In this document: positions 1-10,953 of the stretch, piece after piece
How the letters are laid out: each line of letters opens with the position of its first letter
How positions within the stretch are numbered: the stretch's first letter is position 1
Source of the DNA: a bacterium
Lineage (GTDB): Bacteria > Patescibacteriota > Minisyncoccia > Phycocordibacterales > Zambryskibacteraceae
Assembly: GCA_030649135.1 (NCBI GenBank)
Contig: JAUSGI010000003.1
Span: 1 to 10,953 of the forward strand
Length of the DNA stretch: 10,953 bases
Direction of reading: 5' to 3'
Made by a program: the position numbers and the translations under genes
Notes under the pieces: generated by a model
Told to the model about the DNA's origin: nothing
What the model saw: the letters and a program-made list of their open reading frames with translations, nothing else
Databases searched by the model: none

Positions 1-418
1 AGGGACTTCATCCATCACGCGGCGTCGCTCGATCAGGCTTTCGCCCATTGTCGAATATTCTCGGCTACTGCCACCCGTAGGTGTATGGACCGTGTCTCAG
101 TTCCATCGGTGGGGGTCACCCTCTCAGGTCCCCTAAGCGTCGTTGCCTTGGTAGGCCGTTACCCTACCAACTAGCTGATACTCCGCAGGCCACTCCGGAA
201 GCGAATTGCTCCTTTGGTATTGCTACCACATCTGGGATTACCCCCGCTTTCGCGAAGCTATACCAGACTTCCGGGTATGTACCTACGTATTACTACCTCG
301 TCTGCCACTAATTCAGATCGAGTCTTGCGACTTGATTTGAATCCGTTTGACTTATATGCCTCATCCACGCTGCCAGCGTTCATCCTGAGCTAGGATCAAA
401 CTCTAAATTTTAACGGAA
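1..418 (-). rRNA. rrs: 16S rRNA, 5' portion (about 415 nt). The gene continues beyond the left edge of the window.
   Basis: The reverse complement of 395-415 reads AGAGTTTGATCCTAGCTCAGG, the universal 16S 5' end. Collinear matches to 16S follow, including GAACGCTGGC, GGTAACGGCCTACCAAGGC, ACTGAGACACGGTCCA, and the 338 region as ACACCTACGGGTGGCAGTAG instead of ACTCCTACGGGAGGCAGCAG. Lengths match E. coli 16S with no insertion in the visible part. Confidence 0.93.
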
Positions 419-5468: not shown

Positions 5469-6566
5469 ATGATAAAATGGCTATTGTCAATGAAAATTCT
5501 CTACGGTATAACCAAATCAAATTTTGGAGGCGCCCAGCGCTATGTATATGAATTGGCAGTAGAAGCTAAGAAGCTCGACCACAACGTGGCAGTACTCTGC
5601 GGTGGAAATGGCCCTCTTGCCCAAAAATTGAAAGCGGAAAATATCAGGGTTATTACCATACCCGGCTTCGGTAGAGATATGGCTTTATTAGCCGATGTCT
5701 CCCATCTGTTGTTTATCATTAAAACTGTTTGGCGTGAGAAGCCAGATGTCTTTCATATTAGTAGTGCCAAAATGGGAGGCGCGGGAATTTTTTCTGGTCG
5801 TCTGTTGGGTATCAGGAAAATAATCTTCACGGCCCACGGCTGGGCATTCAATGAACCGCGTCCGGCATGGCAGAAAGTTCTTATAAAATTTTTTACTTGG
5901 GTAACTATACTCTCGGCGCACAAAACTATTTTCGTGTCGGAAAAAACTAAAAAAGACGCCGAGAGGTGGCCCTTCATAAAAAATAAATTGACCGTGATTC
6001 ACAACGGGATATCAAGGTTTAACCTTGCTCAACGTGAAGATGTGTCGTTCACAGTCGGGACAATCGCAGAACTGCATAGAATCAAGGGCTTGGATATCTT
6101 GCTCAAAGCTTGGAATAAATTTCACAAAAAGCACCCAGAAGCGAAGCTCGTCATCATGGGTACTGGAGAGGAGAAAGAGAATTTAGAAACCCAAGCTCAA
6201 GAACTGGGCATTACTGATTCAGTAAACTTCAAAGGCTATGTGGAAAATGCCAAACAATATTTATCAAGCTTCGACATCTTCGTCCTACCCTCCCGTTCAG
6301 AAGCTATGCCTTACACTCTGTTAGAAGCAGGCTTGGCTGAACTACCGGTCATCGCGACTTCTGTGGGAGGTATTCCGGAGGTTATTGAAAGCGGCATAAA
6401 CGGTGTCCTCGTGCCAGCAGAGGAAGAGGAGGCCCTCTTCTCCACTCTCGTACTTTTGGCCGAAGATGAAGAGTTAAGAAAACGCCTTGGCACTAATTTG
6501 AAATCATCAGTCCAAGAAGATTTTTCATTCGAAAAAATGGTGAAAAATACTTTTGCTTTGTATTAA
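5469..6566 (+). CDS. Glycosyltransferase family 4 (GT-B fold, group 1 glycosyltransferase). An alternative start is Met8 at 5490.
   Basis: 365 aa. N-terminal MKILYGITKSNFGGAQRY, typical of GT4 N-domains. C-terminal EAMPYTLLEAGLAELPVIATSVGGIPEVI is the E-X7-E motif region. Confidence 0.85.
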   Translation: MIKWLLSMKILYGITKSNFGGAQRYVYELAVEAKKLDHNVAVLCGGNGPLAQKLKAENIRVITIPGFGRDMALLADVSHLLFIIKTVWREKPDVFHISSAKMGGAGIFSGRLLGIRKIIFTAHGWAFNEPRPAWQKVLIKFFTWVTILSAHKTIFVSEKTKKDAERWPFIKNKLTVIHNGISRFNLAQREDVSFTVGTIAELHRIKGLDILLKAWNKFHKKHPEAKLVIMGTGEEKENLETQAQELGITDSVNFKGYVENAKQYLSSFDIFVLPSRSEAMPYTLLEAGLAELPVIATSVGGIPEVIESGINGVLVPAEEEEALFSTLVLLAEDEELRKRLGTNLKSSVQEDFSFEKMVKNTFALY

Positions 6567-7672
6567 ATTACCCTCGGTCCTTGGGAATAGCGCTTCATGC
6601 TCGAGAGCATGCCGAGGGCAAACCACTCGGTCACTAAATGCGACCCACCGTAACTCATAAATGGAAAAGTGATACCCGTCACTGGTAAGACACCCATATT
6701 CATACCGGCATTGATGGCAATTTGGACAGAGAGCCAGATGACCACGCCTAGACCGAAAAAAGTTTCGAAATTAGTGGCAGCTAATTGAGCACTACTTGTG
6801 ATGCCCGCCAGTAAGACAAAACAGGAGAGCAAGAGAATAACTGCGCCGACAAAACCCCACTCTTCGGTGAAAGCGGCGAAAATAAAATCAGTCTCGTATT
6901 CCGGCAGAAAGCGTAGTTTCGACTGGCTACCTTGGCCAATTCCCTTACCAAGTACCCCGCCGGAACCAACAGCGACAGTTGATTGATAAGCGTTGTAGCC
7001 GGCACCTCGAACATCTGCGAGCGGATGAATAAAAGAGATAATACGAGCTTTCTGATAAGGGGCAAAAACCGACGTCCAAAGAATAGCCGAGGCCACTATC
7101 CCCAAAATTACTACGAAGGCAAAGTGTTTCTTGGAAATACCGGAGACTAGTACCATGCCTAACCAAATTCCGAAGATGACAATAGCCCCGCCAAAATCCG
7201 GCTGTAAAAAGACAAGCAAGAAAATCAGGAGGGCATAGACACCCGAGACCAGGATGTGCCGCAGATTTTTTATCTCAACGTGCCGGCGGGAAAAATATTT
7301 CGAGAGCATTAAGACTATTACCAGCTTGGCCGGATCAGAAGGTTGAAATGCGAAAGCTCCAAATTGAAACCAACTCTGCGCACCTCTGGTCGCTTGGCCC
7401 ACGACCAAAAGAAAAGCCAGCACTATTAGAGTAGCGACAAAAATTGGCACGAGCACTCTGGTCCGGCGCAGAAACCGCCAGTCAACCGTAGTGGCGACAA
7501 AGAAAATAATGAGTGATACGAGGAGCCAGATACTCTGACGGAAGAAAAAATAATTCTCACCGGAGAACGAGTCCATAGTGACCAGTCCGGCCAGAGACAA
7601 TAGGGCCGCTGGCACAAACATATACCAGTCAACATGGAGCCTCTCTCTAAACTTGAGTCCAAGCCCGATCAT
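6563..7672 (-). CDS. SEDS-family peptidoglycan glycosyltransferase (FtsW/RodA/SpoVE)
   Basis: 369 aa and about 10 TM helices. Conserved SEDS blocks FLPEYETDFIFAAFTEEWGFVGA and GVLPVTGITFPFMSYGGSHL. Convergent 4-bp overlap (TTAA) with the GT4 stop, and 4-bp ATGA overlap with the upstream VWA gene. Confidence 0.85.
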   Translation of the reverse strand: MIGLGLKFRERLHVDWYMFVPAALLSLAGLVTMDSFSGENYFFFRQSIWLLVSLIIFFVATTVDWRFLRRTRVLVPIFVATLIVLAFLLVVGQATRGAQSWFQFGAFAFQPSDPAKLVIVLMLSKYFSRRHVEIKNLRHILVSGVYALLIFLLVFLQPDFGGAIVIFGIWLGMVLVSGISKKHFAFVVILGIVASAILWTSVFAPYQKARIISFIHPLADVRGAGYNAYQSTVAVGSGGVLGKGIGQGSQSKLRFLPEYETDFIFAAFTEEWGFVGAVILLLSCFVLLAGITSSAQLAATNFETFFGLGVVIWLSVQIAINAGMNMGVLPVTGITFPFMSYGGSHLVTEWFALGMLSSMKRYSQGPRVI

Positions 7673-9066
7673 CGGAGAAAACTTTTGTTCGGAAGAACTC
7701 TTATGTAGATATCTATGACAGCCGGACTTTTCCTACAGATTTTAGTGGCGATTTGGTTATAAATACCGTTGAGTTCGTTCGTTGAGGGAGCGAAGTAAGC
7801 CTCGGCCGTGGTGGTTGCCAGCGTTTGCAAAAGATTCTTGTTCACATTCTTGCCGAGTCCAATGGTGTAGATACTGATGCCATCCTGCCGAGCCAACCTC
7901 GCGGATTCTACGGCATAAGTTTCAGGATAATTGCCCACCCCCGCTTTTATCGGCAAAGTTGGTATCCCGTCTGTTAAAAGTACCAAGGCCTTACCGGCCT
8001 TCTCGCGGTGACGAGTGGAATTTAATTCTTCCCTGGCAGCCAGGATGCCCGCACCGATGTTTGTATTCTGAATGGTGGTGGTGGCAATCGAAATATTAGT
8101 AATGGCCTGTCGAATAGTGTCGATATTTACACTAAACGCCGCATCAACCGGTGTACTTGCTTCGTTGGCAAAAGATATCAGGGAATGGCGGTCATTCTTA
8201 CCAAGATGGTTGATAAAGTAGAGCGCGGTATTCTTTACATCAGTTAGTGGTTGGGGCGGATTGGCTCCCAAATCATCCATACTGCCGGAGCGGTCGATAA
8301 CCAAAGCCACATCTACGGGAAAGCCACAGATATCTTCCTTAATCTTAAAGGGTTCTGACCAGTTAAAGACGACGGGTGTTAGACCCCCCCCGAGAAGATT
8401 CTCCACAAAAGTTTTGGCAGCCGCTATGAGGTTGCCGTCCTCCCCCGACACCAATGCCGTAAGTTCAATGTTGGCAGCCGAGCCCAGGGAATTGTTTACC
8501 AAGACGGCATCAATTCTCGGGTTGCTATCTCTACTGGTAAGAGCGGCATTTTTTACCGACAAGTCTATTGCCGTCTGGGTATTCTTCTGCCAGACAAACG
8601 CGTCTGTCTGCCACTCGAGTGTGGCCCGGACAGGCCGCCACTCTCCCATGTCCAGAGGACCTTCAAAGATAATAAAAGTATCACTCTTGGGTACAAAGGC
8701 CTCCGACTCTATGACACGAACGGGGGCCAAGGATGATTCTTCAAACAGTTTGAGAATATAGCGAGCATGATAAATCTCGGCAGTGACATTAGGGTTCTCT
8801 ACTACGGCCACTACCGCGTAGAGACTCGGCCCTAGCTCTAGCACTCGCGGGTCACCCTTGAGAATAAGCGGCAGAGACTGGGCAGTACAGAGAAGCTGGC
8901 ATGACCCGCCGCAGTCAATACCGGTTTCATCGCCATTTTGTTTTAGGTCACTGCAAGTTGGTGCTCTATAGAATAAGTAAAAAACGGGTACGCCAACAAA
9001 TATGATAAGGGTGAGAACCACAATAGAAAAAATAATTCTCTTACGCCCTACAGACCATTGATTCAT
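7669..9066 (-). CDS. Membrane-anchored von Willebrand factor type A (VWA) domain protein
   Basis: 465 aa. N-terminal TM helix, a Cys-rich segment (CSDLKQNGDETGIDCGGSCQLLC), a central domain I could not assign, and a C-terminal VWA domain with the MIDAS motif DRSGSMDD and LVLLTDGIPT. Translationally coupled to the SEDS gene. Confidence 0.75.
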   Translation of the reverse strand: MNQWSVGRKRIIFSIVVLTLIIFVGVPVFYLFYRAPTCSDLKQNGDETGIDCGGSCQLLCTAQSLPLILKGDPRVLELGPSLYAVVAVVENPNVTAEIYHARYILKLFEESSLAPVRVIESEAFVPKSDTFIIFEGPLDMGEWRPVRATLEWQTDAFVWQKNTQTAIDLSVKNAALTSRDSNPRIDAVLVNNSLGSAANIELTALVSGEDGNLIAAAKTFVENLLGGGLTPVVFNWSEPFKIKEDICGFPVDVALVIDRSGSMDDLGANPPQPLTDVKNTALYFINHLGKNDRHSLISFANEASTPVDAAFSVNIDTIRQAITNISIATTTIQNTNIGAGILAAREELNSTRHREKAGKALVLLTDGIPTLPIKAGVGNYPETYAVESARLARQDGISIYTIGLGKNVNKNLLQTLATTTAEAYFAPSTNELNGIYNQIATKICRKSPAVIDIYIRVLPNKSFLR

Positions 9067-9223
9067 AAGTTAATTTTAGCAGAGTTGGGGCAAACAAAAA
9101 GCCCCATGTATAAGCGGACTTTTTGTCTGCCGTCACAGGGCCTTAACCTCTAGAAACCCCTAGAACTCCGGATCGTGCTTCGCCCGCCACTCGATCTCGG
9201 CTAGGAGAAATTAAAATCAAGTA

Positions 9224-9334
9224 CTCTGTGCTAGCGCCTAGCTACTTTTGCCTTGCGACTATCATCGCCTCAACTGGGCTTAACTTCCGTGTTCGGAATG
9301 AGAACGGGTGGGACCCCGGCGACGAAGCACCAGA
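9224..9334 (-). rRNA. rrf: 5S rRNA (boundaries approximate, ±5 nt)
   Basis: The minus strand reads GGTCCCACCCGTTCTCATTCCGAACACGGAAGTTAAGCCCAGTTGAGGCGATGATAGT, matching the 5S loop B/helix III and loop C consensus (CCGAACACGGAAGTTAAGC, GATGGTAGT). The terminal helix pairs GUGCU with AGCAC. Confidence 0.8.
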
Positions 9335-9454: not shown

Positions 9455-9695
9455 TTTCGAAGTTTCCTAATAGAATTCGGGCAATTAGTACGCCTCGGCT
9501 CAACACCTTGCGGTGCTTACACCTAGCGCCTATCAACCTGGTCATCTCCCAGGGCCCTAATAACGATTCCTAATCTTGGGGTTGGCTTCATTCTTAGATG
9601 CTTTCAGAATTTATCCGTGCCCGACTTAGCTACCCTGCGGTGCCCTTGGCAGGACAGCAGGTACACCAGAGGTCGGTTCAACTCGGTCCTCTCGT
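9455..9695 (-). rRNA. rrl: 23S rRNA, 3' exon (E. coli ~2657 to the 3' end). The 3' terminus is approximate.
   Basis: The minus strand starts ACGAGAGGACCGAGTTGAACCGACCTCTGGTG (the sarcin-ricin loop onward), continues through CTGAAAGCATCTAAG, and ends near GTACTAAT. Confidence 0.85.
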
Positions 9696-10491
9696 CGCGT
9701 CATTCCCCTATCACTAGGAGCGCAGACTATATCTTCACCCAAACATTTTAAAATGTTTTAGGGTGTTGGCGTATTACTTGCATATGCTGTCGTTTTCAAT
9801 GAAACGATTCCTCATTATGCAAGTCTGCCGGCTTTCACCGACAAGTCGTTACGGGGTCAAACCCAACATCTCTAACAATTCGTTTTTAGACCGCTTTTTC
9901 TTAGTAACATAATTTTCTTCTTGAATTACTAAGATAAGATCAGCTAAAACGAGTAGTTGCTTATTTATGAGTCGTCTCCGTTTGGCTAGAGAAAGAATTT
10001 CACAGGCTTTACGTAAAGCAATAGCCTGAAGTTTCTTGAAACGAATGTATGGCATAAGTGCTTTGAGTATATCTCGCACTTGTACGAATCCATTTATTCT
10101 TAATTCGGTCATTCCATCATTTCTTTTGGAAAGGTACCCGATACCAAGAATTTCTCTAACCCACATTAACGGCTTTTCATGTCGAGTGTCTTGATAGAAG
10201 CAAATGGTCGGCATAAAACGCCTTTTAAGCGCGCCGTCCTTACGCTTCTTGATTTGAAGCATTAAGCTTCCGTCTCCATCAAGAAACCCAGCAATATAAG
10301 CAAGATGATTGGATCGACTTCCCACGGTATTGTCTTGTGTTTTTCTGGTCCTCAAGTAAGTTTATACTTACCATTGTACCACTGCCTACGGACTAGGCCG
10401 GCAATAGTTATCAACAGACCAAACGTCCACAAGATTTCACCGTTATTAGCCACTTTGTCATCACAAATTACTTCGTGAAGTAGCAAAATTT
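9696..10491 (-). mobile_element. Group I self-splicing intron (about 796 nt) in the 23S rRNA, carrying a LAGLIDADG homing endonuclease ORF
   Basis: Exon continuity: ...GAGGGGATTTGACTCTAGU | intron | ACGAGAGGACC... restores the universal SRL sequence. The 5' exon ends in U and the intron ends in G (GACGCG). The P7 3' strand/S element AAGAUAUAGUCUGC (revcomp of 9722-9736) pairs with GCAGACU about 60 nt upstream. There is a P8-like hairpin CGUUU..AAACG, and a P9 hairpin UCCUA-GUGA-UAGGG with a GNRA tetraloop just before the 3' splice site. Confidence 0.75.
9849..10355 (-). CDS. LAGLIDADG homing endonuclease, single-motif and I-CreI-like, encoded in the intron. TTG start with an in-frame TAA 3 codons upstream.
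   Basis: 168 aa. LAYIAGFLDGDGSL motif at residues 18-31. Basic C-terminal region. Located in a peripheral loop upstream of P7. Confidence 0.8.
   Translation of the reverse strand: MRTRKTQDNTVGSRSNHLAYIAGFLDGDGSLMLQIKKRKDGALKRRFMPTICFYQDTRHEKPLMWVREILGIGYLSKRNDGMTELRINGFVQVRDILKALMPYIRFKKLQAIALRKACEILSLAKRRRLINKQLLVLADLILVIQEENYVTKKKRSKNELLEMLGLTP

Positions 10492-10953
<462 letters not shown>

Follow-up and report, generated by a model that had tools for sequence, protein, structure and literature searches.

A RodA-like SEDS gene of Parcubacteria is paired with a gene for an undescribed bitopic membrane protein that bears an optional VWA insert

What does a SEDS polymerase work with if the gene directly in front of its own encodes a membrane protein with a von Willebrand factor A (VWA) domain, and no class B penicillin-binding protein (PBP) is encoded next to it? 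This question is raised by a stretch of 10,953 nucleotides (nt) of contig JAUSGI010000003.1 (assembly GCA_030649135.1; Zambryskibacteraceae, Patescibacteriota), which as a whole is referred to as the window, and in which a SEDS gene follows the gene of a protein of 465 amino acids (aa), termed the partner in the following. Bacterial growth depends centrally on SEDS polymerases, which also serve as drug targets and which are understood almost wholly as pairs of a SEDS protein and a class B PBP from a handful of model organisms. What is new here is that the VWA and SEDS domains, which are ordinary in themselves, belong to a Parcubacteria-wide two-gene module with a conserved partner that represents an undescribed family; in the literature on SEDS partners or VWA proteins of Patescibacteria and Parcubacteria we found no relevant description.

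The gene pair and its distribution

A first-pass annotation of the window had placed the VWA gene immediately downstream of a 5S rRNA gene, had noted that its stop codon overlaps the start codon of a SEDS gene without a class B PBP gene being adjacent, and had proposed, among other roles, a lineage-specific SEDS accessory protein. Indeed, we could validate each of these observations: the 5S rRNA gene lies 162 nt 5' of the partner ATG at 9066 on the same strand, the two protein genes share the 4 nt ATGA at 7669-7672, the second gene matches the SEDS profile PF01098 (FTSW_RODA_SPOVE; 307 bits, E 2.2e-91), and none of the open reading frames (ORFs) of the window contains a class B PBP domain. Judged by their E-values, the domain matches are not due to chance. 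The overlap suggests that translation of the two genes is coupled.

The conservation of the pair was followed in two samples. The genome sample comprises 80 GTDB species-representative loci and 6 metagenome loci, in which the neighbouring genes were located by tblastn; the second sample is an independent metagenome scan seeded by an alignment that was headed by a divergent short form of the partner, in which loci with at least 400 nt of downstream sequence were regarded as informative. A SEDS gene directly 3' of the partner gene and on the same strand was present in all species-representative loci (80/80) and in all further metagenome loci of the genome sample (6/6), and SEDS adjoins the partner in each of the 71 informative loci of the second scan as well. 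The SEDS proteins share 49-85% identity with that of the window in the genome sample and as little as 42% in the second scan. The distance between the stop codon of the partner and the start codon of SEDS is mostly −4 to +9 nt in the related loci, including many ATGA overlaps, and the distance to the projected first SEDS residue in the metagenome loci is mostly −26 to +63 nt, with outliers at +157 and +210 nt. A class B PBP gene located beyond SEDS, with the VWA gene absent, was not observed among the relatives, and the close homologues of the VWA protein are by no means confined to unrelated contexts. Because SEDS adjoins the partner gene on its 3' side in every related locus examined and the flanks contain no class B PBP, these results support the proposal of a lineage-specific SEDS accessory protein.

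In total, 837 homologues of the 465-aa protein were detected. The full-length ones measure 455-470 aa, reach down to about 41% identity and originate from metagenome-assembled genomes (MAGs) named Wildermuthbacteria, Zambryskibacteria, Minisyncoccia or Parcubacteria, all of which belong to the ultra-small bacteria of the Parcubacteria (Paceibacteria) group of Patescibacteria. A search with residues 1-245 against 1.84 billion representative proteins yielded 135 representatives at E ≤ 1e-30, which fall into two length classes.

Mirror-tree comparisons gave distance correlations of r = 0.80 for partner and SEDS, 0.72 for partner and SecD, and 0.76 for SEDS and SecD. The partial correlation of partner and SEDS given SecD is 0.58 (permutation p ~5e-4), which is consistent with a weak co-evolution signal between the two proteins.

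The partner protein and its VWA insert

The partner is a type II (N-in) bitopic membrane protein and represents the VWA-bearing form of a SEDS-adjacent family that occurs throughout the Parcubacteria. The description as a single-pass protein with a Cys-rich N-terminal segment in the first-pass annotation proved to be correct, the protein having one hydrophobic segment and four cysteines at positions 38, 52, 56 and 60. An N-in, C-out topology is predicted because this hydrophobic segment is the only one, because three positive charges precede it, and because all six invariant cysteines (the four mentioned above, C247 and C444) are located after it in the ectodomain; the same orientation is indicated by the occurrence of the Cys motif in secreted proteins and by the similarity of the VWA domain to extracellular VWA domains, both of which are described below. 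The VWA domain, whose location relative to the membrane the first-pass annotation had left to be predicted, would thus be extracytoplasmic.

The AlphaFold2 (AF2) model, with a mean predicted local distance difference test (pLDDT) value of 85-86 for the full partner and for residues 1-245 alike, consists of a long transmembrane helix, a poorly resolved Cys motif, two beta-sandwiches, the VWA domain and a final strand. From the model and the fold search we conclude that the central domain, which had been recognised in the first-pass annotation but left unassigned, corresponds to two immunoglobulin (Ig)-like beta-sandwiches that follow a 4-Cys motif of a type found in secreted proteins. The conserved unit of the family comprises the first ~245 residues and the last ~18 residues, i.e. 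the N-in helix, the 4-Cys DCGG motif and the two Ig-like beta-sandwiches, and for its N-terminal module neither a Pfam family match nor a solved relative was found. The short cytoplasmic tail is strongly constrained: among 84 partners of both lengths, 99% keep W4 and 98% keep R8, and both residues are invariant in the divergent short-form alignment. Together with the conserved loops of the sandwiches, W4 and R8 point to specific contacts of the partner on both faces of the membrane.

Within the 4-Cys motif, the residues C38, C52, C56, C60, E47, G49, D51, G53 and G54 are invariant in the homologue alignments, and the confidence of the AF2 model is low across this region. Near-identical copies of the motif, 11-39 in tandem, are also present in giant proteins (P0121, P0124, P0126-P0128, P0130, P0134, P0148, P0151 and P0161). 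Those of the giant proteins that were scanned against Pfam contain DUF11, CAP and CBM31/GH26 domains, and three of them end in sorting tails of the type IX secretion system (T9SS). Because tandem copies are found in T9SS-tailed giant proteins, the motif is likely to be a secreted mini-module. No Pfam model, no PDB relative and no paper containing the motif strings was found, and DCGG therefore appears to be an undescribed extracellular mini-domain.

The C-terminal, MIDAS-containing VWA domain (MIDAS, metal-ion-dependent adhesion site) reported in the first-pass annotation was confirmed by a match of residues 252-437 to PF00092 (E 1.5e-22, 81.1 bits, cut-off 23.8) and by a complete MIDAS, the residues D258, S260, S262, T335 and D366 of which are invariant in 95 homologues, as are C247 and C444. 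Its role as the defining feature of the protein was not confirmed, since short forms that lack the VWA domain keep the tight pairing with SEDS. These short forms measure 250-285 aa, match window residues 1-240 and account for 50 of the 80 species-representative loci; in the metagenome loci the lengths are bimodal, with 57 of 77 partners being short, without VWA, and 20 being long. A multiple alignment matches them to the C-terminal ~18 residues of the window protein as well. The closest relative that we found, locus L025 (SEDS 85% identical), has no VWA domain; its partner reads ...PRPFVDSVIDINIIIRILPDKSFLR and aligns to window residues 1-240 and then to 451-465, and the window protein reads ...SEPFKIKEDIC before the VWA domain and CRKSPAVIDIYIRVLPNKSFLR after it. 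Since the short forms match the sequence before as well as after the VWA domain, we conclude that this domain is an insertion into the last beta-hairpin of sandwich 2. C247 and C444 probably form a disulfide clamp at the base of the insert. In a neighbour-joining tree built from the SEDS sequences (no bootstrap), the presence of the VWA domain changes at least 12 times, which suggests repeated loss of the domain, or its exchange.

A Foldseek search with the AF2 model of the VWA domain returned extracellular VWA domains as best matches (E 1e-11 to 3e-14), namely those of mussel PTMP1, ITIH1, the Streptococcus sanguinis minor pilin PilB, ANTXR1/2, BatB, collagen VI, vWF A3 and integrin I domains. 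With a complete and invariant MIDAS, and with adhesive extracellular VWA domains (PTMP1, PilB, ANTXR, collagen VI, vWF A3, integrin I) as closest relatives in structure, the partner could be a factor for adhesion to a host or to other cells, which was also considered in the first-pass annotation; it would then mediate MIDAS-dependent attachment of an episymbiont and would merely be co-transcribed with wall synthesis genes. However, about two thirds of the family, including the closest relative of the window, lack the VWA domain and still keep the SEDS pairing, so that adhesion via the VWA domain cannot be the conserved function, and the frequent changes on the SEDS tree argue in the same direction. 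We consider this explanation highly unlikely for the conserved core and limit the idea of host adhesion to the VWA insert at most. The coordinates of the protein segments and of the surrounding features are listed in Table 1.

Table 1 Features of the window around the partner-SEDS gene pair, in the order of the minus strand (residue numbers refer to the partner protein).
Feature	Position	Strand	Basis or remark
23S rRNA, 3' part	10953..9477	minus	interrupted by putative group I intron with LAGLIDADG ORF
5S rRNA	9229..9334	minus	Rfam RF00001, 58.4 bits
Stem-loop GGCAGACAAAAAGUCC...GGGGCUUUUUGUUUGCC, 17-bp stem	9089..9131	minus	RNA fold of 9235..9060, region z-score −3.3
Partner gene, 465-aa ORF	7669..9066	minus	ORF listing; Pfam PF00092
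Predicted cytoplasmic tail, residues 1-10 (MNQWSVGRKR)	9037..9066	minus	W4, R8 near-invariant
Transmembrane helix, residues 11-33	8968..9036	minus	Kyte-Doolittle maximum 2.95, sole hydrophobic segment; AF2 helix 3-32, pLDDT ~90
4-Cys DCGG motif, residues 36-60 (PTC-D---NGDETG-DCGG-C---C)	8887..8961	minus	extracytoplasmic mini-module
Ig-like beta-sandwich 1, ~residues 66-162	8581..8871	minus	ENPN loop (N91, N93), Y103, W159 conserved
Ig-like beta-sandwich 2, ~residues 166-242, to insertion point	8341..8571	minus	AF2 model; P183, N191, T219, F234, W236 conserved
VWA domain in last hairpin of sandwich 2, between invariant C247 and C444	7735..8328	minus	Pfam PF00092; alignment
MIDAS motif DRSGS, residues 258-262	8281..8295	minus	sequence; invariant in alignment
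Final beta-strand with C-terminal tail, residues 448-465, PAVIDIYIRVLPNKSFLR	7672..7725	minus	AF2 strand 450-457; directly after sandwich 2 in short forms
ATGA shared by the partner stop and the SEDS start	7669..7672	minus	ORF listing; strand reads ...ctccgATGAtcggg
SEDS gene, 369-aa ORF	6563..7672	minus	Pfam PF01098
GT4 glycosyltransferase, convergent	5469..6566	plus	
Small receiver-like ORF, 121 aa	5035-5400	minus	weak receiver-domain match, 25.9 bits, below Pfam cut-off 30.2
PaaX-like ORF, 189 aa	4311-4880	plus	PaaX central Cas2-like domain PF20803, E 1.9e-16
Bac_transf (sugar-phosphate transferase), SecD, SecF	beyond PaaX-like ORF	minus	
16S rRNA, 5' end	411..1	minus	

The SEDS protein and the surroundings of the pair

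The SEDS protein contains the FQPSDPAKL motif and the catalytic Asp D262 (ETDFIF; nt 6889..6887), which aligns with HTDFVF of Thermus thermophilus RodA, and by these residues it looks active. Its score with the FtsW model TIGR02614 (284.9 bits) is below the cut-off of 337.5 and also lower than its score with the RodA equivalog TIGR02210 (332.8 bits), and the RodA subfamily model NF037961 is matched with 187.5 bits, over the cut-off of 150. In a comparison with PDB entries, T. thermophilus RodA scored highest (199.6 bits), followed by Escherichia coli RodA (175) and Pseudomonas aeruginosa FtsW (159). These results suggest that the SEDS protein is RodA-like. No mur, fts or mre genes were found within 10 kb in the loci for which gene tables were available, and no second SEDS was found in the flanks (up to 10 kb) of related loci. 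The division and cell wall (dcw) gene clusters are described as conserved in the Candidate Phyla Radiation (CPR) in a passage of PMC10221324 that cites Megrian et al. 2022. If this is valid for Parcubacteria, the window SEDS would be a paralogue of the RodA type outside dcw.

In the window, as in many related loci, genes for a GT4 glycosyltransferase and for Bac_transf are located 3' of SEDS; other loci (e.g. L051, L053, L055, L060, L061, L063 and L067) lack them, the partner-SEDS pair being constant throughout. One may ask if the SEDS-like protein and the partner, together with the convergently encoded GT4 enzyme and Bac_transf, a polyprenyl-phosphate sugar transferase, polymerise or attach a surface glycan other than peptidoglycan. 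However, the many loci which keep the pair in spite of having lost GT4 and Bac_transf, the RodA-like score on the equivalog model and the retained catalytic Asp all speak against such a pathway, which we regard as extremely improbable.

The absence of a class B PBP is not restricted to the window, since neither PF00905 nor PF03717 was found in any of the 29 ORFs with 430 aa or more in the flanks (up to 10 kb) of 83 related loci. The partner itself has no pedestal domain (PF03717), no transpeptidase domain (PF00905) and no fold bearing SxxK, SxN and KTG. In a groundwater survey, which was based on KEGG Orthology (KO) annotation and covered all Patescibacteria, FtsW was detected in 70-93% and FtsI in 3-36% of the MAGs (PMC8672522), and a global survey of SEDS proteins and class B PBPs makes no mention of CPR (PMC12516126). 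The empty flanks and the survey numbers would both be expected if the Ig-like partner had taken the place of a class B PBP beside the SEDS protein, with cross-linking being performed by other enzymes or being reduced. However, absence from the flanks says little, because rodA and ftsW are often located apart from their class B PBP genes in other bacteria; the dcw clusters that CPR are described to keep include ftsI in their canonical form (PMC8871954), and the partner has neither catalytic residues nor a transpeptidase-like fold with which it could take over the reaction. We therefore judge a replacement of the class B PBP to be decidedly unlikely. An equally low probability is assigned to the more far-reaching idea that Parcubacteria possess a RodA core complex consisting of SEDS and an Ig-like bitopic protein without a class B PBP, in which the VWA-bearing forms would tie wall growth to an external ligand or to attachment.

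Two kinds of ORFs in the flanks of relatives are possible wall-related neighbours. In locus L001 (837-2699, plus strand) and in the related L036 (38-1969, plus strand), a PG_binding_1 protein of ~610-640 aa is encoded 5' of the rRNA operon at a distance of several kb, and one flank ORF of another related locus matches BiPBP_C (PF06832), a PBP C-terminal domain.

In the intergenic region between 5S and the partner gene a sigma-70 promoter scan found no promoter. Transcription of the pair may start at an atypical promoter or result from read-through of the rRNA operon. A stem-loop in the same region ends ~23 nt before the ATG (Table 1). It was not reported by a consensus terminator scan, and it may serve as a terminator of the rRNA operon or as a processing stem.

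The rRNA genes of the window are unlinked and show an unusual order on one strand, i.e. 23S, 5S, ~8.8 kb of protein genes (partner, SEDS, GT4, Bac_transf, SecDF) and 16S, which recurs in L003, L005, L007, L009, L033, L036, L038, L039, L048, L049 and other Parcubacteria loci. The 3' region of 23S contains an insertion of ~790 nt with a putative intron at ~9704-10066 (RF00028 group I intron match of 30.1 bits, below the gathering score), and this insertion encodes a LAGLIDADG homing endonuclease (ORF 9849-10355; PF00961, E 8.3e-9). Split 23S matches and LAGLIDADG ORFs were also observed in related loci. On the other side of the pair, SEDS and GT4 converge, their 3' ends overlapping by 4 nt at 6563-6566. 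The PaaX-like and receiver-like ORFs have no counterpart in the gene tables of L001-L006.

Proposed role and likeness to known systems

Based on these results, we propose that throughout the Parcubacteria the partner serves a RodA-type polymerase as an accessory subunit that is not a PBP, and that it carries a metal-dependent ligand-binding insert which varies between lineages. We regard this proposal as evenly balanced between being right and being wrong, and the same even chance applies to the claim that the partner and SEDS physically cooperate, for which genomic pairing is the basis.

Several observations weigh against the proposal. A same-strand 5S gene within 600 nt upstream of the partner gene was found in 54 of the 80 related loci with enough upstream sequence, and SecDF downstream is also widely conserved, although neither has an obvious functional link to the pair; because gene order is generally conservative in this lineage, adjacency is weaker evidence here than it would otherwise be. 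Fusion proteins of partner and SEDS were not seen among the related genome and metagenome loci, and the mirror-tree signal could be due to physical linkage, i.e. joint transfer or recombination, instead of co-adaptation. No SEDS alignment column tracks the presence or absence of the VWA domain, the best column difference of 0.64 looking phylogenetic. In the fold comparison, the beta-sandwich fold is generic and shows no link to known SEDS regulators. Finally, the SEDS protein stays just under the cut-off of the RodA equivalog TIGR02210 (336.7 bits), and the decision between RodA and FtsW is taken entirely from profile scores.

The conserved positions of 5S and SecDF could also mean that the pair is co-expressed without forming a complex. 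The partner would then be an independent surface protein with a structural or adhesive function in the wall or S-layer, which is kept beside SEDS by a gene order frozen near the rRNA operon or by a simultaneous need for both products, and the make-up of its ectodomain from generic adhesion or spacer modules, i.e. Ig-like sandwiches and a Cys motif of secreted giant proteins, would fit such a role. However, the junction of partner and SEDS is the tightest of the locus (mostly −4 to +9 nt) and the most invariant one (151/151 informative loci), whereas GT4 and Bac_transf are often lost and the distances of 5S and SecDF vary widely, that between 5S and the partner gene from 28 nt to 8 kb. Moreover, a passive surface protein would hardly be expected to keep W4 and R8 invariant in a cytoplasmic tail of 10 residues. 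For these reasons we consider frozen gene order to be unlikely and favour an accessory subunit.

As an accessory subunit, the partner would be produced from one operon with SEDS, and translation of both genes together would result in a fixed ratio of the two proteins. Its transmembrane helix, the juxtamembrane motif and the W4/R8 tail would dock on SEDS, which would hold the Ig-like ectodomain above the site on the outer face at which the glycan strand is made or emerges. From there the partner may activate, stabilise or position the polymerase, as other bitopic SEDS regulators do (RagB, MreC, FtsQLB/FtsN). The VWA insert, where present (~1/3 of lineages), is predicted from its MIDAS to provide a metal-dependent site for an acidic ligand, candidates for which are another envelope protein, a wall component or a host surface. 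Because the insert is dispensable in most lineages, it would modulate the core function and not define it.

The family of the partner is tied to RodA-like SEDS proteins in hundreds of species from a major uncultured lineage. It offers a concrete candidate, amenable to cloning, for a SEDS subunit other than a PBP in CPR, the envelope biology of which is essentially unknown. The forms with and without VWA represent a natural domain-deletion experiment, and with DCGG a secreted mini-module is added that has not been described before and that many giant surface proteins contain. Even if the pairing reflects mere conserved gene order, a well-defined new family of Parcubacteria surface proteins would remain. 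If, on the other hand, a core complex free of class B PBP were true, this would be a SEDS synthase of new composition, and in VWA lineages the wall growth of an episymbiont would be responsive to attachment.

Non-PBP proteins that act on SEDS polymerases have been described in other bacteria. YrrS is a small bitopic membrane protein. Under the name RagB it was reported as a RodA regulator of Bacillus subtilis that interacts with RodA and is proposed to stimulate the polymerase (PMC12457691). RagB and the partner resemble each other as non-PBP RodA accessories, the likeness being functional and architectural only: there is no relation in sequence or domains (the N-terminal module has no Pfam match), coupling to rodA was not reported for RagB, and the interaction was demonstrated for RagB, whereas it is deduced from gene pairing for the partner. 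Further precedents for non-enzymatic bitopic regulators are MreC/MreD (PMC7793260) and FtsQLB/FtsN (PMC8078798). Like the partner, MreC, RodZ and FtsQLB/FtsN are N-in proteins that cross the membrane once and have beta-rich domains on its extracytoplasmic side; their site of action is the outer face of the synthase, and their genes often lie beside morphogenetic genes. The family profiles and folds of MreC (beta-barrels), FtsQ/DivIB (POTRA) and RodZ (cytoplasmic helix-turn-helix) did not match the partner, and it was not assigned to any of these families. The class B PBPs themselves (PBP2/FtsI) are likewise bitopic and N-in, with a short tail, a single transmembrane helix and an ectodomain, and their gene can be located directly 5' of SEDS, as in mrdA-mrdB; unlike these, the partner lacks PF03717 and PF00905 and cannot cross-link peptidoglycan.

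The architecture of the long forms resembles that of integrin beta, in which a MIDAS-bearing VWA domain (beta-I) is inserted into an Ig-like sandwich (hybrid domain) with its termini side by side at the base, but the host domains are not homologous, so that this is an analogy and not homology. The putative C247-C444 clamp at the base is of the kind found in vWF A domains and would limit a piston-type allostery, in contrast to integrin. A BatA-type aerotolerance VWA protein was rejected as an assignment, the NF047508 model scoring 39.5 bits against a cut-off of 380, and over the VWA domain only; related NCBIfam models also stay far under their cut-offs. The best structural matches include three surface-anchored bacterial VWA proteins with a MIDAS, namely BatB (3ibs), the minor pilin PilB of S. 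sanguinis (7ba2) and Mfa5 (6tnj). In contrast to BatA/BatB, PilB and Mfa5, the partner is found in no pilin or Bat operon context, and its VWA domain is an optional insert in a SEDS-linked protein.

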